From: Samistivirus egole | Lineage: Duplodnaviria; Heunggongvirae; Uroviricota; Caudoviricetes | Direction: 5' to 3' (one strand) | Virus record (IMG/VR): IMGVR_UViG_2974779775_000001 | Span: 60,108 to 124,107 of that record | DNA length: 64,000 nt | Shown here: in pieces, positions 14,452 through 45,831 of the stretch | Layout: each line of letters opens with the position of its first letter | Numbering within the stretch: position 1 is the first letter of the stretch | Program-made: the position numbers and the translations under genes | Notes under the pieces: model-generated | What the model was told of the DNA's origin: nothing | Seen by the model: only the letters and a program-made list of their open reading frames with translations | Databases searched by the model: none

Positions 14452-14622
14452 ACCAACTTTTGGGTCGATTGAGACACGGTTATCTTACACAATGGATACT
14501 AGGTTCGATTCCTAGGGGTGCTGTAAAAGGTGCTCTGTAAAGTCATCTCAGATGTGTGTGGTAGGATGACATTAGGTACTACACTCTCTCCGTTCTCGCC
14601 ACTTACCTAAAGGATTTACATT

Positions 14623-15144
14623 ATGACGGTACTCCTAAGAACAATTCATGGTTCGCATCTGTACGGTCTCGCTCACGCAGGTTCGGATAAAGACATCTAC
14701 GAAGTGGTTGCTACAAAGCGAACCAAGCGGAAGCGCAATATTAAGCAAACCATCGTGAATGGAATTGACAAGACGGTCGTTGACCTCTCGACATTCATGC
14801 ACATGGTTGACGAATGCGTACCTCAAGCACTTGAAGCGCTATGGACGCCGGTACCAGATGTGGATGAAATCCACCAGTTCCGGACACAATATCGAGTGAA
14901 TCGCGCCAAGATGAAGGAAGTATACATTCGTACCGCTCTGAACTTCGCCAAGCATGAAGACGTAAAACGAAAGCGACATGCTATTCGTCTCCTTCTAAAC
15001 CTTGGTGAGGCCCTGGAATACGGTAAGTTCAATCCACGGCTGTCCACTATGGACAAGTTCATTCTCCGCTCATCACTCGGAGAGTCTGGAGCATATGAGG
15101 ATGTCTTTCTGGGCGTTCTCGATGAAGTGCAAAAGTGGGTCTAA
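14623..15144 (+). CDS. nucleotidyltransferase-fold (Pol beta-like NTase) protein
   Basis: Minimal NTase motif HGSHLYGLAHAGSDKDIYEVV (GS-x-D-x-D). Confidence 0.45.
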   Translation: MTVLLRTIHGSHLYGLAHAGSDKDIYEVVATKRTKRKRNIKQTIVNGIDKTVVDLSTFMHMVDECVPQALEALWTPVPDVDEIHQFRTQYRVNRAKMKEVYIRTALNFAKHEDVKRKRHAIRLLLNLGEALEYGKFNPRLSTMDKFILRSSLGESGAYEDVFLGVLDEVQKWV

Positions 15145-22045: not shown

Positions 22046-22396
22046 ATGCCATTTTCCAATGAAGAGGAGCGAAAGGCGTACGCTAAGGCTCACTACGAAA
22101 AGAACAAACATGTCTACAAAGAACGTAATAATCGTTCACGGCAAAAGAGAGAAGACTTCGTCTTCGACCTTAAGAAAAACAATCCGTGTGCTGATTGTGG
22201 AGAGTTCTATCATCCATGTCAGATGCAGTATGACCACATAGCTGATGACAAAGAAGCTACTGTGAGTTGGCTAGTTCGCAATGGAACAATCAAGAAGATT
22301 GAAACTGAGATTGCCAAGTGTGAACTTGTTTGTGCCAACTGTCACGCATTGAGAACGTGGACCAGACATGAAAAGAATTGCGGGTCGAAAGAGTAA
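22046..22396 (+). CDS. HNH endonuclease
   Basis: CADCG...YDHI...N...CANCH. Confidence 0.75.
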   Translation: MPFSNEEERKAYAKAHYEKNKHVYKERNNRSRQKREDFVFDLKKNNPCADCGEFYHPCQMQYDHIADDKEATVSWLVRNGTIKKIETEIAKCELVCANCHALRTWTRHEKNCGSKE

Positions 22397-22451
22397 GTCG
22401 GTTATCTTCCTTTGAATAAGAAACAGGTAGGTTCGAATCCTACGTAGCCCA
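22382..22451 (+). ncRNA. tRNA-like element (uncertain)
   Basis: T-arm GTAGG-TTCGAAT-CCTAC and an anticodon-like loop CTTTGAA (TTG). The acceptor and D-arm are poor. Confidence 0.3.
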
Positions 22452-22494
22452 AGGCACGGGCGACTCCGACTCTCACCTATATATCCGCACTAGT

Positions 22495-23262: not shown

Positions 23263-24915
23263 ATGTCAAACGCACTTAACACTGCTGCCAAGGGTCTGAA
23301 CAAGACTCCTCAGTCTCAGAAGGCTAAGGCAGGTCAGGTAAAGAACAACGCTGGTGGATTCGTCTTCCAGGTTTCTGACCAGGCTCGCCTAGAGCGATTC
23401 CTGATTCTGGGTGTAGACGGTGGCACTTATTACGTCAAGGAGAGTGCACACGCTCGTTCCAACGTACAGTTCCTCAACGAGATGATTGAGCGAGACGAAG
23501 CCTCTGTACTGAACACCATTGTGGACGTGTCTGTCAATGGTCGTGCATACAAGCAGTCTCCTGCCCTGTTCGCTCTAGCCTCTGTCATTGCCAATGGTAA
23601 GAACAAGCAGGCGGTCAAGGCGGTATTCAATCGTGTCGTTCGTACAGGCACTCACCTGTATGAGCTTCTGAACTACCTTACTTCAATGAACGTTGGGTGG
23701 GGTCGTTCAAAGCGAGAGATTGTTGCTTCTTGGTTCGACCGAGATGCTGACAAGCTGGCTTATCAGGCGGTCAAGTACCGTTCTCGTAAGTTCGGTGAGC
23801 AGACTTGGACACTCCGAGACGTAATGCGTCTTTCCCACCCACGAGATGTGAACACGTCTGTTGCAGATTTTGTTCTCGGCAAGCCTCACGATGCTACCGA
23901 TGACCTTCGGGTTATCGAGGGCTTCAAGAAGATGCAGAGGGCTCAGTCTGTCGAGGACGTTCACAGCGTTCTCCGTGAGTACGAGATGCTTTCATGGGAG
24001 ACAATCCCAACTCAGTTCCTCAAGGACGTGAGTGTGTGGAAGCGAATCTTCGCTAACGGACAGCTCCGTGGCCAGGCTCTTGTTCGAAACATCACTCGCC
24101 TCGCGCGAATTGGTGCTTTCCAGGACATGCGCTTTGCTGCTGCGTATGCGGGACAGCTCACAAATCAGGAGATGATTGTACAGACTCGTCTGCATCCAAT
24201 CAACTTCCTGAATGCGTCTGTCGTGTACAACGAAGGCCAGATGAAGACCGTAAGGGACCGCTGGGGCTTCGAGCGCGAGGAGCGTGTAAAGGACTGGACA
24301 ACTGAGAGTGTTATTGCGGATGCCCTCAATGAGGGATTCCACAAGGCATTCAAGGCTGTCGAGCCTGCCGGTAAGCGAACGATGCTGGCTCTGGACGTAT
24401 CAGGCTCCATGAGTGCAAAGGCTAACGGTCTCGACCTTAGCTGTGCTCAGGTTTCTGCTGCAATGTCTATGGCCATCGCTCGTACCGAGCCTGCTCACAT
24501 CATCCGTGGATTCACGTCCAATGGATATGGCTGGTCTGGTCGCAACAGTGACCTTACCGACCTTGGTATCAGCGCTAAGACAGACCTTGCTACGGCAATG
24601 CGTAATGTCCAGCGTCACAACTGGGGTGGTACGGACTGTAGCCTTCCAATGCGTTGGGCTCTGGACCGTGGAATTGAAGTAGACACGTTCGTCATTATCA
24701 CCGATAATGACACGTGGGCTGGTGAAATCCACCCATTCCAGGCGCTCAAGGAGTACCGTAAGAAGACTGGCATTCCAGCTCGTCTGGCAGTTCTGGGAGT
24801 TCAGGCAACTGAATTCACCATCGCTGACCCAAGCGACGCAGGAATGATGGACTTCGTAGGGTTTGACAGCAATGCACCTCGTGTGCTCGCTGACTTCTCC
24901 GCAGGTCGCATCTGA
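23263..24915 (+). CDS. rsr: Ro60 (TROVE domain) ortholog with C-terminal vWA domain
   Basis: TROVE-like N-terminus (GGFVFQVSDQARLERFLILGVDGGTYY) and a C-terminal MIDAS motif (LALDVSGSMS). The length of 550 aa matches the bacterial Rsr architecture. Confidence 0.7.
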   Translation: MSNALNTAAKGLNKTPQSQKAKAGQVKNNAGGFVFQVSDQARLERFLILGVDGGTYYVKESAHARSNVQFLNEMIERDEASVLNTIVDVSVNGRAYKQSPALFALASVIANGKNKQAVKAVFNRVVRTGTHLYELLNYLTSMNVGWGRSKREIVASWFDRDADKLAYQAVKYRSRKFGEQTWTLRDVMRLSHPRDVNTSVADFVLGKPHDATDDLRVIEGFKKMQRAQSVEDVHSVLREYEMLSWETIPTQFLKDVSVWKRIFANGQLRGQALVRNITRLARIGAFQDMRFAAAYAGQLTNQEMIVQTRLHPINFLNASVVYNEGQMKTVRDRWGFEREERVKDWTTESVIADALNEGFHKAFKAVEPAGKRTMLALDVSGSMSAKANGLDLSCAQVSAAMSMAIARTEPAHIIRGFTSNGYGWSGRNSDLTDLGISAKTDLATAMRNVQRHNWGGTDCSLPMRWALDRGIEVDTFVIITDNDTWAGEIHPFQALKEYRKKTGIPARLAVLGVQATEFTIADPSDAGMMDFVGFDSNAPRVLADFSAGRI

Positions 24916-27855: not shown

Positions 27856-27932
27856 GGGTTTGATTGGTATAAGGTTACTGAAAGCCGACAATGGACCGGT
27901 AACTGTAGAGGGTTCGAATCCCTCCAAATCCA
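27856..27932 (+). ncRNA. atypical 77-nt tRNA-like element
   Basis: Acceptor GGGTTTG/CAAATCC and T-arm GAGGG-TTCGAAT-CCCTC. The 45-nt interior is not foldable into standard arms by eye. Confidence 0.3.
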
Positions 27933-28699: not shown

Positions 28700-28785
28700 G
28701 GAACTGGCTGAGTCATGACCAGCACGCAATGGTGCGATAGCGGCCGATAAACCGTCAATTCTGGGTTCGAATCCCGGCAGTTCCC
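28700..28785 (+). ncRNA. 86-nt tRNA-like RNA with non-tRNA interior
   Basis: Perfect acceptor GGAACTG/CAGTTCC and T-arm CTGGG-TTCGAAT-CCCGG. The interior has a GTCATGAC palindrome and a CGCA-ATGG-TGCG hairpin, with no anticodon arm. Confidence 0.4.
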
Positions 28786-42079: not shown

Positions 42080-42089
42080 TATTTGACTA

Positions 42090-42126
42090 TTGACAACCAG
42101 CTTAGCTTCATGTTAGGCTGGTTGTC
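42090..42126 (+). promoter_or_regulatory. promoter -35 element inside a 10-bp inverted repeat
   Basis: TTGACA within GACAACCAGC...GCTGGTTGTC. Confidence 0.35.
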
Positions 42127-42193
42127 GCATGCCGGGGAAGTTCTTTGGTAAGAACAGTCTCTCTATAGTGTTCATTTGACCGTGCACAGTCTC

Positions 42194-42222
42194 TTGACAC
42201 CTCCTAGTAGCGCTGCTAGGAT
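42194..42222 (+). promoter_or_regulatory. SigA-type promoter driving a noncoding region
   Basis: TTGACA-N17-TAGGAT. Confidence 0.45.
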
Positions 42223-42237
42223 GACAGAGTAGAAAGG

Positions 42238-42264
42238 TTGGAGGTTCGATTCCTCCCTCTGGCA
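42238..42264 (+). ncRNA. isolated T-arm-like hairpin
   Basis: GGAGG-TTCGATT-CCTCC plus an acceptor-like CTCTGGC, with no full tRNA. Confidence 0.3.
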
Positions 42265-42274
42265 CTTAAGACTT

Positions 42275-42403
42275 GGCCCCAAGAGGCAGCCGATGGTCAC
42301 CGGGATGCATACCGCCCATTGGACCTTATCTAGGTACCACGTCTATGCAACCGACGGGTTGAGCCCATAGACAATGGGGTAGGTTCAAATCCTACTGGGG
42401 TCC
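42275..42403 (+). ncRNA. 129-nt tRNA-like RNA with a ~100-nt non-tRNA interior
   Basis: Acceptor GGCCCCA/TGGGGTC pairs completely, and T-arm GTAGG-TTCAAAT-CCTAC sits next to the 3' acceptor strand. It lies downstream of the promoter at 42194. Confidence 0.4.
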
Positions 42404-42500
42404 ACTATGTTGGAAACTATTCATTCGAAGAGTGGAAGGAGCGTAATGATTTACGACCCTGGTTAGTGTAACTACACTAACTTTGAAGGAGTGAATTATT

Positions 42501-42973: not shown

Positions 42974-43250
42974 ATTGGCCGGAAACAAGAACAGCCGTAA
43001 GAAGTGGCTCTGTCTTGACTGTGGTGTTGACACTGGCAGGATTGGCGAACACTTCTTTCTCGACATGAGCGTCTGGTCCTTGACAGGACTTGGACACGAA
43101 GGTATGCTCTGTGTAGAGCACGTTGAGGAGTGAATCGGCAGGCGTCTTGTTCCGGCCGATTTTACGTCCGCCTACATCAACCGCTTGAACAACGGGTTCA
43201 AGTCTGCTAGGCTGGTCTCACGAATCAAGGGCAACTAACAAGGAGGACCG

Positions 43251-44351
43251 ATGAAGTTCACCAAGATTTTCTCTCAGGACTTGCTTGACCAGATGGTCAA
43301 CGAGGGCTTTGTTCGGGTGCAGACTCATCCGGTTCTCCCTCTGCGAATCCTGAACTACTCTGAGAAGGCGCAGTTCGCTGGCAAGTGGAACGCATGTACG
43401 CTTGCTTGTCGTGGCCTTGTCGTTGACGAGTTTGACAATGTCATTGCTCGTCCGTTCGAGAAGTTCTTCAACATGGGGGACTCTCACGCTGCTGACATCG
43501 ACTGGAACGCTCCGGTTGAGGTAACGGACAAGAAGGACGGCTCTATGGGCATCCTTTACTCCGTAATGCCTTACAACGACGCGATTCCGCCTTACGGATT
43601 CCAGTACGGAATTGCTACGCGAGGCTCTTTCCAGTCTGACCAGGCAATTCACGCTACAAAGCTATGGCTGGAGCGCTACAAGAACACCGCTGTCCCTCAC
43701 GACTGGACGTTCATTTTCGAGATTGTCTACCCTGACAACCGAATCGTCCTGGACTACGGAGACATGGATGACCTTATCCTTCTGGGTGCGGTCAACAAGG
43801 AGCACGGCTACGTGTATGGTCCTCGTGAGGCTGCGGCTTTGCTGGATTGGCAGGGGCCGGTAACCGAGGTGTTCGATTACAAGAACATTCACGAGGCTGT
43901 TGGTGCAGACTACCGTCCTAACGCTGAGGGTCTTGTAATTCGCTCTGGTTCTAAGATGGTCAAGCTCAAGCAGGCTGATTACGTTGAGCTTCACCGACTG
44001 ATTTCAATGCTTTCCGAGCGCTCTGTATGGAGTCAGCTCACTGAGGGCAAGACGATTCTGGAGATTTGTGAGGCTCTGCCTGACGAGTTCCACCAGTTCG
44101 TCAAGGATGTCGGTGGCAAGCTGCTCAACGACTACGAGGAGATTGAGATTAAGGTGCGTGGAATCTTCCACAACCTTCTTTCTTCAATGGACGAGGGCTT
44201 CACACGACGTGACTTCGCAATGAAGGCCAACGGTGTGGACCTATACCGTAGCCACATGTTCAACCTGCTTGACGGCAAGAGCATCGATGAGCTAATCTGG
44301 AAGCAGCTCAAGCCCGCTGCAAAGACGGAGGATGGCTACCCTGTCGGGTAG
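43251..44351 (+). CDS. ATP-dependent RNA ligase (Rnl1-like)
   Basis: Nucleotidyltransferase motif I TDKKDGSMGILY (KxDG) in a 366-aa protein, similar in size to T4 Rnl1. RBS AAGGAGG. Confidence 0.6.
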   Translation: MKFTKIFSQDLLDQMVNEGFVRVQTHPVLPLRILNYSEKAQFAGKWNACTLACRGLVVDEFDNVIARPFEKFFNMGDSHAADIDWNAPVEVTDKKDGSMGILYSVMPYNDAIPPYGFQYGIATRGSFQSDQAIHATKLWLERYKNTAVPHDWTFIFEIVYPDNRIVLDYGDMDDLILLGAVNKEHGYVYGPREAAALLDWQGPVTEVFDYKNIHEAVGADYRPNAEGLVIRSGSKMVKLKQADYVELHRLISMLSERSVWSQLTEGKTILEICEALPDEFHQFVKDVGGKLLNDYEEIEIKVRGIFHNLLSSMDEGFTRRDFAMKANGVDLYRSHMFNLLDGKSIDELIWKQLKPAAKTEDGYPVG

Positions 44352-44374
44352 CCTCCCATAACAAGGAGAATAAA

Positions 44375-44512
44375 TTGTCTGACGCCACTCGCACTGCCGA
44401 TGAGGCTGTTTCAAACGCTAAGCTCATTGGCATGGCTGTTTGGTCATGGCTGAGTTCCCATCCTGCGGTTCTCGCCATTCTGTTTTTCGTACTTGGCTTC
44501 ATGATTGGCTAA
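44375..44512 (+). CDS. small membrane protein
   Basis: 45-aa ORF with a TTG start after RBS AAGGAGA and one transmembrane helix. Confidence 0.35.
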   Translation: MSDATRTADEAVSNAKLIGMAVWSWLSSHPAVLAILFFVLGFMIG

Positions 44513-44515
44513 GCA

Positions 44516-44694
44516 TGAGGAACGTATTTAGGGCGGCAGCTCAAAAGGCTGTACGCGAAGGTATATGTACCCCAGTAATAGGTTGTGGACAACCTATTCG
44601 AGATGAGGATTTTAATGACGAAGAGTCTTTGCGAGAATCCCGTATCTCAGGTCTCTGTCAGTCCTGTCAAGATAGGATTTACGGAGACCTCTGA
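44516..44694 (+). CDS. small zinc-finger protein
   Basis: CTPVIGCG...CQSCQ. Confidence 0.4.
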
Positions 44695-44701
44695 GGTCAG
44701 G

Positions 44702-44794
44702 ATGGGCGAAGAGGCATTTCGATGCTCTATTTGCAAGTATCAATTTCCATACCATTCTGACGAATGTCCGTATAACATGAACAACCAGAAGTAG
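44702..44794 (+). CDS. 30-aa zinc-ribbon peptide
   Basis: CSICK...ECPY. Confidence 0.3.
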   Translation: MGEEAFRCSICKYQFPYHSDECPYNMNNQK

Positions 44795-44797
44795 CAG

Positions 44798-44820
44798 AAG
44801 GGCCCTTCGGGGCCCTTTTT
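44798..44820 (+). terminator. rho-independent terminator
   Basis: AAGGGCCC-TTCG-GGGCCCTT followed by TTT. Confidence 0.65.
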
Positions 44821-44829
44821 GCGTAGGGG

Positions 44830-44858
44830 TTGACACTGTCTCAGTGATGTACTAGGCT
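44830..44858 (+). promoter_or_regulatory. SigA-type promoter
   Basis: GGGGTTGACAC-N16-TAGGCT. Confidence 0.5.
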
Positions 44859-44885
44859 AGAGCTAACAACAACGAAGGGAAAAAC

Positions 44886-45791
44886 ATGGCAACGCTTCTC
44901 ATTCTCCGGGGTGTCCCTGGATGTGGTAAGAGCACCTTCGCTCACCAGTGGCTCAAGGAGGGCGAGCGACGTGCCCGTGTAAACCGTGATGACATCCGCA
45001 TGCAGTTCTTCGGTAAGGAGACTGGTGTAGATGAGAACATGGTTACACAGATTGAGCACATGCAGGTTGACAGTCTGCTTAAGGCTGGATACTCTGTGGT
45101 GGTCGATGACACGAACATCCGTCACGCTTACATCAAGGCTTTCGTCAAGATTGCTGGTAAGCACGGTGTGCCTGTTGCAGTAAAGCAGTTTGATGTAGAC
45201 CTCAAGGTCGCCATTGGGCGCAATGCTGGTCGGGCGGCACAGGGTGGTCGTGACGTTCCTACTCCTGTCATTGAGAAGATGCACAAGTCTCTCAAGTCCA
45301 GTGGACAGTTCACGCGCAAGCTGATTGAGGAAAGCTACTGTAGCTCTCCTGTTGGCAAGCCTTACGTTCGGCCAGTGGGTAAGCGGAAGATTTACCTCTT
45401 TGACATTGATGGCACTCTTGCCAGCATGTCTGACAGGTCTCCGTTTGACTGGTCTCGCGTGGGAGAGGATGACCCTCGTAGGCAGGTCGTACTGACTGCT
45501 CAGGCACTTGCTGAGGCAGGTTACGACATTGTAGTTATGAGTGGTCGTGACTCTAGCTGCCGTGAAGAAACAATTGCTTGGCTGGAGTTCTACGATGTTC
45601 CTTTCTGTGACCTCTTCATGAGGGCAGAGGGCGACATGCGTAAGGACAACATCGTTAAGCAGGAATTGTTTGACCAGCACATCCGTGACTTCTACGATGT
45701 TGTGGCCGTCTTTGACGACCGGCAGCAGGTGGTTGACATGTGGCGTGACATGGGCGTAGACTGCTTCCAGGTTGCGCCTGGAGATTTCTGA
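44886..45791 (+). CDS. pnk: polynucleotide kinase-phosphatase (Pnkp-like)
   Basis: N-terminal P-loop kinase GVPGCGKST and C-terminal HAD phosphatase DIDGTLA, the T4 Pnkp architecture, in a 301-aa protein. Confidence 0.8.
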   Translation: MATLLILRGVPGCGKSTFAHQWLKEGERRARVNRDDIRMQFFGKETGVDENMVTQIEHMQVDSLLKAGYSVVVDDTNIRHAYIKAFVKIAGKHGVPVAVKQFDVDLKVAIGRNAGRAAQGGRDVPTPVIEKMHKSLKSSGQFTRKLIEESYCSSPVGKPYVRPVGKRKIYLFDIDGTLASMSDRSPFDWSRVGEDDPRRQVVLTAQALAEAGYDIVVMSGRDSSCREETIAWLEFYDVPFCDLFMRAEGDMRKDNIVKQELFDQHIRDFYDVVAVFDDRQQVVDMWRDMGVDCFQVAPGDF

Positions 45792-45795
45792 GATT

Positions 45796-45819
45796 GCGGG
45801 CCTCCGGGCCCGCTTTCTT
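45796..45819 (+). terminator. rho-independent terminator
   Basis: GCGGGCC-TCC-GGGCCCGC followed by TTTCTT. Confidence 0.6.
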
Positions 45820-45831
45820 GGGTAGAAGGGG

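Follow-up and report, generated by a model that had tools for sequence, protein, structure and literature searches.

Here, we report that Streptomyces phage EGole encodes an RNA ligase of the T4 Rnl1 family (gp197) and a T4-type polynucleotide kinase-phosphatase (Pnkp; gp200), which retain their catalytic residues, follow the T4 gene order, are encoded next to each other on one strand and are jointly conserved in BE and BK Streptomyces phages. We consider it rather probable that the two proteins form a T4-type healing and sealing pair that mends tRNAs cut in the anticodon loop and sustains translation against host tRNA cleavage. The T4 pair is a textbook case of counter-defense, and it is by comparison with T4 that we predict the enzymatic activity, the tRNA substrate and the counter-defense role of the EGole pair. 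The ligase and kinase genes are already annotated in GenBank, and finding them is in itself ordinary; the main yield of the analysis is that the GenBank annotation of both enzymes is sound and that two small-gene calls are corrected in one phage record.

The window, i.e., the whole 64,000-nt stretch of DNA that was analyzed, is 100% identical to EGole (MK494112). An earlier note on this DNA had described two long ORFs, and the ORF list returned both with the same coordinates on the + strand: the ligase gene at 43251-44351 (366 aa; GenBank product "RNA ligase") and the Pnkp gene at 44886-45791 (301 aa; GenBank product "polynucleotide kinase"). The motifs cited in the note were likewise recovered, with TDKKDGSMG at residues 92-100 of the ligase and GVPGCGKST and FDIDGT at residues 9-17 and 172-177 of Pnkp. 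To judge from their sequences, both genes are genuine and not chance ORFs, and both look intact.

By profile, sequence and fold searches, gp197 belongs to the T4 Rnl1 family. It matches Pfam RNA_lig_T4_1 (PF09511) over residues 53-242 (54 bits, cut-off 28.3; E 2.7e-14), PHROG 562 over residues 2-360 (E 3e-84), the T4 Rnl1 structure 2c5u (E 1.5e-9) and, in BLASTP, RB10 RnlA (32% identity; E 3e-13). The best Foldseek match to its AF2 model (pLDDT 90.8) was T4 Rnl1 (E 5e-17; 391 alignment columns; whole-protein TM 0.54), and the second-best was a domain of the fungal tRNA ligase Trl1 (PDB 6n0t; E 1e-10). The Pfam, PHROG and fold matches all agree with the Rnl1-like ligase proposed in the earlier note, and, as its best solved-structure match is T4 Rnl1, followed by the fungal tRNA ligase, gp197 is identified as an RNA ligase of the Rnl1 type rather than as a DNA ligase or capping enzyme. 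The Pfam family that the note had named, PF09414, was incorrect; gp197 has no match to PF09414, and PF09511 matches instead.

The proposed nucleophile, based on alignment with T4 Rnl1, is K94 in motif I (K94-x-D96-G97-S98; KxDGS), which aligns with T4 K99. Outside this motif, E157, E226-G227 and K238/K240 align with T4 E159, E227-G228 and K240/K242, and the N-terminal residues characteristic of Rnl1 are shared as well, with R54, K71 and F73 matching T4 R54, K75 and F77; EGole and T4 thus share both the nucleotidyl-transferase motifs and the Rnl1-specific residues. Mutagenesis has defined a set of 12 essential residues in T4 Rnl1. Eleven of these are identical in gp197, while the twelfth, T4 K119, corresponds to R124, a conservative Lys-to-Arg change that is invariant within the clade. 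Among 32 homologues, the catalytic residues are invariant down to 46% identity. The C-terminal domain of T4 Rnl1 confers tRNA preference. In the AF2 model of gp197, the C-terminal domain (~residues 242-352) is all-helical, with seven helices at a pLDDT of about 84-97, and the modeled domain matches that of T4 Rnl1 at fold level only. This fold-level match, at the whole-protein TM given above, and the identity of only 32% to T4-type Rnl1 in the catalytic domain are two observations that speak against the counter-defense reading.

T4 gp63 has a second activity in tail fiber attachment. The sole support for such a function of gp197 is the RefSeq name "RNA ligase and tail fiber protein attachment catalyst," which is inherited from PHROG 562/T4 gp63. 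EGole, however, is a siphovirus (BE1 phages; PMC5764925), its ligase gene lies in the tRNA/small-gene region far from the tail genes (record positions 33-52 kb) and all ligase catalytic residues are strictly conserved; accordingly, we see next to no chance that gp197 attaches tail fibers.

Profile and residue comparisons identify gp200 as a predicted bifunctional polynucleotide 5'-kinase/3'-phosphatase of the T4 type. gp200 matches Pfam HAD_PNKP over profile positions 2-143 of 143 (E 1e-53), AAA_33 (E 7.6e-25) and PHROG 505 (E 2e-104); it is collinear with T4 Pnkp (1ltq; residues 4-301 on 4-301; E 6e-43), which is also 301 aa long, and shares 35% identity with RB10 PseT (BLASTP; E 8e-56). The best solved-structure match, over the full length, is Pnkp1 of Capnocytophaga gingivalis (4xrp; E 1.3e-44), which has the same kinase plus HAD-phosphatase architecture but is bacterial, whereas gp200 is viral. 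The kinase residues K15, S16, D35, R38 and R116 align with T4 K15, S16, D35, R38 and R126, and the phosphatase set is complete, with D173, D175, R184, R221, D250, K253, D277 and D278 corresponding to T4 D165, D167, R176, R213, D254, K258, D277 and D278. The earlier note had recognized a 301-aa Pnkp with a P-loop kinase and a DxDGT phosphatase; both domains are present with their residues, and every phosphatase residue is kept.

In vitro, Pnkp enzymes of the T4 type are active on DNA ends, which raises the question of whether gp200 heals DNA breaks with 3'-phosphate and 5'-OH ends while the ligase is incidental, along the lines of a proposal for the ligase-free Pnkp of mycobacteriophages. Indeed, in many Mycobacterium phages the match to a Pnkp homologue has no RNA ligase annotated under it, and in Xanthomonas and Stenotrophomonas phages a Pnkp homologue lies beside a DNA ligase. 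We nevertheless give DNA-end repair only a very slim chance, as Pnkp is paired with an Rnl1-type ligase throughout the phage family and the fold matches of gp197 to DNA ligases are far weaker than that to T4 Rnl1 (E at least 3.5e-3 versus 5e-17).

Homology strongly suggests that gp197 and gp200 would heal and seal cut tRNA. In the mechanism that we propose, cleavage of an RNA by an endoribonuclease would leave a 5'-OH on one side of the break and a 2',3'-cyclic phosphate or 3'-phosphate on the other; the C-terminal DxDGT acyl-phosphatase domain of gp200 would strip the 3' phosphate, and its N-terminal P-loop kinase would phosphorylate the 5'-OH; gp197, adenylylated on K94, would then pass AMP to the 5'-phosphate and join the ends. 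The likeliest substrates would be host or phage-encoded tRNAs whose anticodon loop is cleaved in the course of infection, and translation would be kept running when a host tRNA-cleaving defense or toxin fires. EGole shares both enzyme families with T4, in which Rnl1 (gp63, rnlA) and Pnkp (pseT) carry out repair versus the PrrC anticodon nuclease, at 32% identity in the ligase catalytic domain and 35% in Pnkp. Unlike T4, EGole is a siphovirus with a high-GC actinobacterial host and about 45 tRNAs, compared with 8.

From the T4 paradigm, we infer a role of the pair in counter-defense against anticodon nucleases, "layered" with the tRNA array, as in the earlier note. Others have already proposed this role, both for the tRNA arrays of BE1 phages (PMC5764925) and, in actinophages, for ligase/kinase pairs (PMC7302621). 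Pairs of this kind occur in Microbacterium cluster ED phages (PMC7302621) as well as in the BE and BK Streptomyces phages, and the EGole locus is one such record with no material difference. The reference in the note to "PrrC/RloC-type" defense overstates the range of the ligase/Pnkp pair because RloC excises the wobble nucleotide, which defeats ligase-based repair (PMC3710099). Our search of the literature found no characterized anticodon nuclease from Streptomyces; the finding would gain weight if the Streptomyces defense that it answers were identified.

The counter-defense reading is favored by a genome that is heavy in translation and RNA upkeep functions, with 42-45 tRNAs, a tmRNA, Ro60 and RlaP. 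Specifically, ARAGORN identified 42 tRNAs across the window, along with a single tmRNA, in line with the approximately 40 tRNAs and tmRNA counted in the earlier note, while GenBank lists 45 tRNAs in the same span, the 45th of which, tRNA-Gln (58172-58252), we assume to be annotated. A Ro60 orthologue (gp128; 23263-24915; TROVE E 2.7e-31, vWA_Ro60 E 7e-59) and an RlaP-family nucleotidyltransferase (PF10127; 26.1 bits, cut-off 23) are also encoded in the window. An Rfam search for a Y RNA near Ro60 found nothing, and a manual Y RNA candidate at 22384-22473 was discarded because its motif is expected about once per kb by chance. With about 45 tRNAs, a tmRNA, Ro60, RlaP and the ligase/Pnkp pair, BE phages are a good system in which to study how tRNA replacement and tRNA repair are divided.

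The presence of Ro60, RlaP and tmRNA in the same window also supports a reading as general RNA upkeep, in which the pair would belong to a dispersed phage RNA quality-control toolkit (Ro60, RlaP, tmRNA, tRNAs) and would mend tRNAs or other stable RNAs damaged by stress, host housekeeping RNases, toxins or phage host-shutoff nucleases, so that a dedicated immune system would play no part. We consider this reading unlikely, though with a real chance of being correct. In bacteria, genes for Ro60 and Y RNA share RNA-repair operons with RtcB (PMC4201824, PMC7790460), and EGole resembles the Rsr(Ro60)-Y RNA-RtcB/RtcA operon in that Ro60, an RNA ligase, predicted end healing and tRNA-like noncoding RNAs occur in one genome; in addition, some relatives encode a HIT-family hydrolase three genes 5' of the ligase. 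However, EGole has Rnl1 and not RtcB, its genes are spread over 30 kb and, at a distance of 18-29 kb, the toolkit genes are not in one operon with the ligase. Moreover, counter-defense in T4 is the only role of Rnl1/Pnkp that is understood experimentally. The upkeep and counter-defense readings overlap, and computation cannot separate them.

Both the ligase and Pnkp occur in 128 records of Streptomyces phages, at DNA identities that fall to about 68% in the BK phage Annadreamy. Both enzymes are kept while the genes between them turn over, indicating selection on both enzymes. The intervening set varies among BE1, BE2 and BK phages: a 96-aa ORF is gained, Tomas is without ZnA (described below) and the ORFs of Annadreamy are unrelated. 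A Pfam search of the three small ORFs of EGole gave no match; based on this result and on the differences between relatives, we see nothing that connects the small ORFs with RNA repair and rejected such a link.

The three small ORFs, all on the + strand, are genuine, and on this point the earlier note was more accurate than the GenBank record. The first, gp198 (44375-44512), has a TTG start and encodes 45 aa with a hydrophobic C-terminal half; it matches PHROG 12781 (function unknown; E 1e-33), is 59-100% identical in BE1 relatives and is probably a membrane peptide, and some records label its counterpart as a membrane protein. The second, here called ZnA (44515-44694), is a 59-aa CX5C...CX2C protein that matches PHROG 19722 (E 1.5e-40), is present in BE1 and BE2 phages based on tblastn and is annotated in phage Evy; the EGole record omits it. 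The third, ZnB (44702-44794), is a 30-aa CX2C...C mini-protein that matches PHROG 19259 (E 3.6e-38) and whose ATG is preceded by GAGG. In GenBank, gp199 starts earlier, at 44615, and its first 29 codons are ZnA read out of frame. Within the 80-nt overlap of ZnA and annotated gp199, substitutions at codon positions 1/2/3 of the ZnA frame number 8/8/19, while a third-position excess in the ZnB frame is found only from 44702 onward (17/18/29). In Tomas, Evy and BE2 phages, conservation of gp199 is confined to its C-terminal 30 aa. Altogether, the EGole record probably mis-starts gp199.

The order of ligase, small ORFs and Pnkp is the same as in the T4-type locus (rnlA-alc-pseT.3-pseT.2-pseT.1-(hypothetical ORF)-pseT), and in both T4 and EGole the small ORFs include membrane peptides; however, the intervening ORFs of EGole are unrelated to alc and pseT.1-3. 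Just past ZnB, on the + strand, we read from the sequence a terminator-like hairpin at 44798-44820 (AAGGGCCC-TTCG-GGGCCCTT, followed by a T run), which the consensus terminator scan does not list, as part of the T run is paired within the stem. It is followed by an exact promoter-like site, TTGACA-N17-TAGGCT (44830-44858, + strand), 28 nt 5' of the Pnkp start; five promoter-like sites with at most one mismatch occur in the window, compared with 0.22 expected. The consensus scan also placed an intrinsic-terminator-like site (GCGGGCC-TCCG-GGCCCGC with a T-rich tail; 45796-45823, + strand) 5 nt past the Pnkp stop. With the hairpin and the exact promoter-like site intervening, we rejected a single operon, and the ligase and Pnkp genes look like separate transcription units. 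This separation is a further observation that speaks against the counter-defense reading. The "cassette" of the earlier note is therefore accurate in its layout of ligase, small ORFs and Pnkp but overstated in its unity, considering the hairpin, the promoter-like site and the ORFs that differ in relatives. A promoter-like site at 43080-43108 is doubtful as a ligase promoter, since it falls within an 87-aa ORF that is intact in relatives; in EGole, this ORF is broken by a CGA-to-TGA nonsense change.

About 850-1100 nt upstream of the ligase and on the same strand lie two unannotated, covariation-supported tRNA-like elements (element 1, 42131-42264; element 2, 42275-42404), and the consensus scan found no terminator-like site between them and the ligase. 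Their termini pair as an acceptor stem and their arms are in canonical tRNA order, while large insertions with conserved and covarying helices replace the anticodon arm. Each is single-copy in the window based on nhmmer, and pattern scans of IMG/VR found the elements in BE-type phage genomes only. An Rfam scan gave a weak tRNA match and no ribozyme or other family, and we rejected those identities. TTGACA-N17-TAGGAT in element 1 was rejected as a promoter; the Evy-type variant loses the -35 hexamer and keeps the base pairing.

The position of these RNAs is compatible with phage RNA maturation, in which the pair would join exon-like halves of the tRNA-like transcripts after an endonuclease cut, in a splicing-like manner as in fungal Trl1. 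The second-best fold match of gp197 fits this reading, and the adenylyltransferase domain of fungal and plant Trl1 is Rnl1-like, as is gp197; the healing and sealing chemistry of Trl1 acts on tRNA halves (PMC6379707). In Trl1, however, a single polypeptide contains the ligase, the kinase and the cyclic phosphodiesterase, and a 2'-phosphate is left behind, whereas EGole has two proteins and a HAD-type phosphatase. We see hardly any chance for RNA maturation. Only when the threshold is relaxed does ARAGORN return element 1 as a tRNA with an intron, and in that model the anticodon, AUG, is implausible and the insertion falls at position 34/35, which is non-canonical, while element 2 is without an anticodon-like loop; thus, we rejected both as intron-bearing tRNAs. 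In addition, the inserted helices are conserved and covary, unlike a discarded intron, and many phages keep the ligase and Pnkp without the elements.

An identity as YrlA Y RNAs was also rejected, since position, motif and topology all disagree. The genes of YrlA-type Y RNAs share a strand with Ro60 and lie no more than about 4 kb from it (PMC4201824), whereas the elements lie 17 kb downstream of the Ro60 gene, on the same strand; the YrlA motif GNCGAAN0-1G is absent in 42080-42500; and neither element has the permuted order of T-arm, closed acceptor-like stem and D-arm. In motif and topology, they also differ from the Y RNAs of the Rsr operon. We see a small chance that the ligase is co-transcribed with both tRNA-like RNAs and that these work together with the repair enzymes or the phage Ro60 in an RNA-guided tRNA-surveillance module, in which they might serve as decoys or sensors for tRNA-targeting nucleases or as scaffolds for the repair enzymes. 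If so, the locus would be more than a bare T4-type enzyme pair. The unannotated RNAs are the part of the locus most likely to repay experiments.

We know of no function assigned to the closest analogue of the elements, T4 species 1 RNA (rnaC, 139 nt), which the T4 record annotates only as a "small, stable RNA." Its likeness to the elements is architectural only, with no detectable sequence similarity: they are similar in size (130-139 nt), end in a terminal stem with a canonical T-arm close to the 3' end, carry long extra hairpins in place of the normal D/anticodon arms and are encoded amid phage tRNA genes.

The 3-kb region around the ligase gene gp197 and the kinase-phosphatase gene gp200 matches Streptomyces phage EGole (MK494112.1; RefSeq NC_055791) at 100% identity. 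EGole is a siphovirus of cluster BE1 with a genome of 135.7 kb, and its isolation host was S. griseus; 87 other Streptomyces phage records align with this region at 60-98% identity. A window coordinate equals the record coordinate minus 60107. An ORF listing gave exactly the positions and lengths that the earlier note had claimed for the two genes (43251-44351, 366 aa; 44886-45791, 301 aa), the motifs that it had quoted were found in both proteins, and GenBank already names them "RNA ligase" (gp197) and "polynucleotide kinase" (gp200).

The ligase belongs to the Rnl1 family, as the earlier note had proposed. The only Pfam family matched was the RNA-ligase family RNA_lig_T4_1 (PF09511; 54 bits, cut-off 28.3), PHROG 562 covered residues 2-360 (E 3e-84), and T4 Rnl1 was the sole match in a sequence search of solved structures (E 1.5e-9). 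Using an AlphaFold model (32 homologues as input; pLDDT 90.8), we found that T4 Rnl1 was also the top fold match (E 5e-17), followed by the adenylyltransferase domain of fungal tRNA ligase; the C-terminal third of the model is all-helical, like that of T4 Rnl1. DNA ligases and capping enzymes matched the model only weakly, at E values of at least 3.5e-3, which argues that repair of DNA ends by the pair is unlikely; we also regard it as unlikely that the ligase serves in tail-fibre attachment. Based on alignments to T4 and RB10 Rnl1, K94 (KxDGS), E157, E226-G227, and K238/K240 correspond to T4 K99, E159, E227-G228, and K240/K242, the Rnl1-specific residues R54, K71, and F73 are the same in both proteins, and R124 lies at the position of T4 K119. 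The positions were computed; the T4 residues are those that we take, from the mutagenesis literature, to be essential. All of the aligned motif residues, including R124, are invariant across the 32-sequence alignment (identity down to 46%).

gp200 is a kinase-phosphatase of the T4 type. Residues 4-301 align to residues 4-301 of T4 Pnkp (E 6e-43), Capnocytophaga Pnkp1 is a slightly better match (E 1.3e-44), and identity to RB10 PseT is 35% over the full length. The P-loop kinase and DxDGT phosphatase assignments both held: the kinase set is complete (K15, S16, D35, R38, and R116), and no phosphatase residue is missing (D173, D175, R184, R221, D250, K253, D277, and D278), so the outcome that the earlier note had named as a refutation was not seen. 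The gene arrangement is shared with the T4-type phage RB10, in which rnlA, alc, pseT.3, pseT.2, pseT.1, a hypothetical ORF, and pseT follow one another on a single strand. Homologues of Rnl1 occur in 1422 phage records and more than 2500 database clusters, the BE and BK clusters of Streptomyces phages keep ligase and Pnkp together, and a jumbo-phage survey described Rnl1/PNK-HAD combinations as the general rule (PMC7824862). Altogether, the pair had been identified correctly and is a known, already annotated, textbook-type system.

The two proteins are very likely active healing and sealing enzymes. By analogy, we lean toward the view that the pair was selected to restore tRNAs that host nucleases cut during infection. 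The BE1 genome announcement proposed that the tRNA array possibly counters tRNA-degrading defences (PMC5764925), and a survey of Microbacterium phages suggested that actinophage RNA ligase and polynucleotide kinase genes possibly act against RNA-cleavage defences (PMC7302621). RloC, which the earlier note had listed among the nucleases countered, should be removed from that list because it excises the wobble nucleotide and thereby pre-empts repair by the ligase (PMC3710099). The main rival to tRNA rescue is general RNA upkeep as part of a broader phage toolkit. In its favor, the window encodes a Ro60 orthologue (gp128; 23263-24915, +; TROVE, E 2.7e-31; Ro60 vWA domain, E 7e-59), and Ro60, the ligase, Pnkp, the tmRNA, and the tRNAs together point to a broad RNA quality-control toolkit. 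Similarly, gp107 (14623-15144, +), annotated as a nucleotidyltransferase and located among tRNA genes, matches RlaP (PF10127; 26.1 bits, cut-off 23), the RNA-ligase-associated Pol-beta family. Finally, in some relatives the third gene upstream of the ligase, at the locus where EGole has tRNA-like RNAs, encodes a HIT hydrolase (PF01230, E 1.2e-15; 208-669 in the Evy stretch L002; same locus in Tomas and Anedea). Because aprataxin-type HIT enzymes take 5'-AMP off failed ligations, this hydrolase may be a further accessory to repair. The N-terminus annotated for the Evy HIT gene overlaps a variant of one of these RNAs (element 1) and is probably too long.

The three small ORFs reported between ligase and Pnkp are all real: a 45-aa hydrophobic peptide (44375-44512, +), a 59-aa CX5C...CX2C protein (ZnA; 44515-44694, +), and a short CX2C...C protein (ZnB; +) ending at 44794. 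ZnA is annotated in Evy and absent from the EGole annotation, in which gp199 begins at 44615 within ZnA, creating an 80-nt overlap in a different frame. In a six-phage alignment, substitutions at codon positions 1/2/3 number 8/8/19 in the overlap (ZnA frame) and 17/18/29 beyond 44702 (ZnB frame), and gp199 is conserved in more distant phages only in its last 30 residues. Because of this third-position excess and the conserved 30 residues, ZnB most likely begins at ATG 44702 (30 aa). Judged by these counts, the EGole record is in error in lacking ZnA and misplacing the gp199 start; related records inconsistently annotate one or the other. Each small ORF has a PHROG match, in every case to a family of unknown function. 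BE2 phages and Tomas have an extra 96-aa ORF inserted between ligase and Pnkp, ZnA was not found in Tomas by tblastn, and in the BK phage Annadreamy two unrelated ORFs occupy this interval. We found no sign that the small ORFs play a part in RNA repair: the set is unstable between phages, and none of the three matched Pfam.

A predicted GC hairpin followed by a T run directly 3' of ZnB (44798-44820, +) and an exact promoter-like TTGACA-N17-TAGGCT 5' of Pnkp (44830-44858, +) suggest that ligase and Pnkp are probably separate transcription units; a terminator-like site follows Pnkp (45796-45813, +). Upstream of the ligase, gp196 of EGole has a nonsense change (CGA to TGA at 43131-43133, relative to Watermoore) that shortens a conserved CxxC protein from 87 to 52 aa and leaves an apparent 117-nt gap. 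Because relatives have an intact ORF across the promoter-like site at 43080-43108, the ligase is more likely transcribed by read-through from farther upstream.

Three small genes 5' of the ligase, an unannotated gap of 420 nt (42080-42500) contains two tRNA-like RNAs, each present once in the window. Element 1 (42131-42264, +) has a 7-bp acceptor stem (GCCGGGG/CTCTGGC), a D-arm, and a canonical T-arm; after the D-arm, a 7-bp stem leads to two conserved hairpins in the anticodon-loop position, one carrying invariant CUAGUAGCGCUGCUAG. Element 2 (42275-42404, +) has a 7-bp acceptor stem (GGCCCCA/TGGGGTC), a canonical T-arm, and two long composite helices; it lacks an anticodon-like loop. The consensus structure of element 1 is kept in 96% of cells, with 17 pairs showing compensatory double changes (9 BE phages), and that of element 2 in 39/39 pairs (100%), with 10 compensatory pairs (10 BE phages); slid controls gave 0-5. 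ARAGORN defaults missed element 1, and its marginal tRNA match (32.8 bits) was the only Rfam hit of either element. TTGACA-N18-TAGGCT lies just 5' of element 1 (42090-42119), and in Mildred21-type phages, which have element 2 alone, TTGACA...TAGACT lies directly 5' of that element. Among the records examined, the sole annotation of either is a 129-nt 'tRNA-OTHER' for element 2 in the Mildred21 RefSeq. The closest analogue is T4 species 1 RNA (rnaC, 139 nt), which is a stable RNA from the tRNA cluster and has the same predicted-fold plan; identity as YrlA Y RNA was rejected on published criteria (PMC4201824). A consensus scan found no terminator-like site between the elements and the ligase, which leaves room for co-transcription. 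Each element comes and goes independently of the other among BE phages, and because ligase and Pnkp are kept in phages without either element, a functional link to the repair enzymes is speculative.

About 800 nt 5' of Ro60, on the same strand, 22384-22473 (+) is a weak candidate for a YrlA-like Y RNA. It contains a GUCGAAAG motif and lacks a D-arm; the terminal stem is GAG..GUCGG/CCGACUCUC, the T-arm is GTAGG-TTCGAAT-CCTAC (ATAGG/CCTAT in Jay2Jay), and there is a closed stem-loop. By chance alone the motif is expected roughly once per kb, folding gave a z-score of 0.07, and Rfam gave no match. Using ARAGORN on the whole window, we found 42 tRNAs and one tmRNA, in agreement with the earlier count of about 40 plus a tmRNA; GenBank has 45 tRNAs in this span, including the tRNA-Gln at 58172-58252, which we assume to be annotated. 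None of the 42 tRNA genes nor the tmRNA encodes 3' CCA, so the phage tRNAs would depend on a CCA-adding enzyme; in all window tRNA genes and the tmRNA, C directly follows the discriminator base and the sequence diverges beyond it. Outside the called tRNAs, orphan T-arm motifs with a perfect 5-bp stem and a TTCGAWT loop lie at 14499, 17490, 27908, 28446, 28761, and 56436 (+). Those within 27856-27931 and 28700-28784 also show 7/7 acceptor-type terminal pairing with non-canonical interiors, and the orphan motifs may represent further tRNA-like RNAs or tRNA genes in decay.
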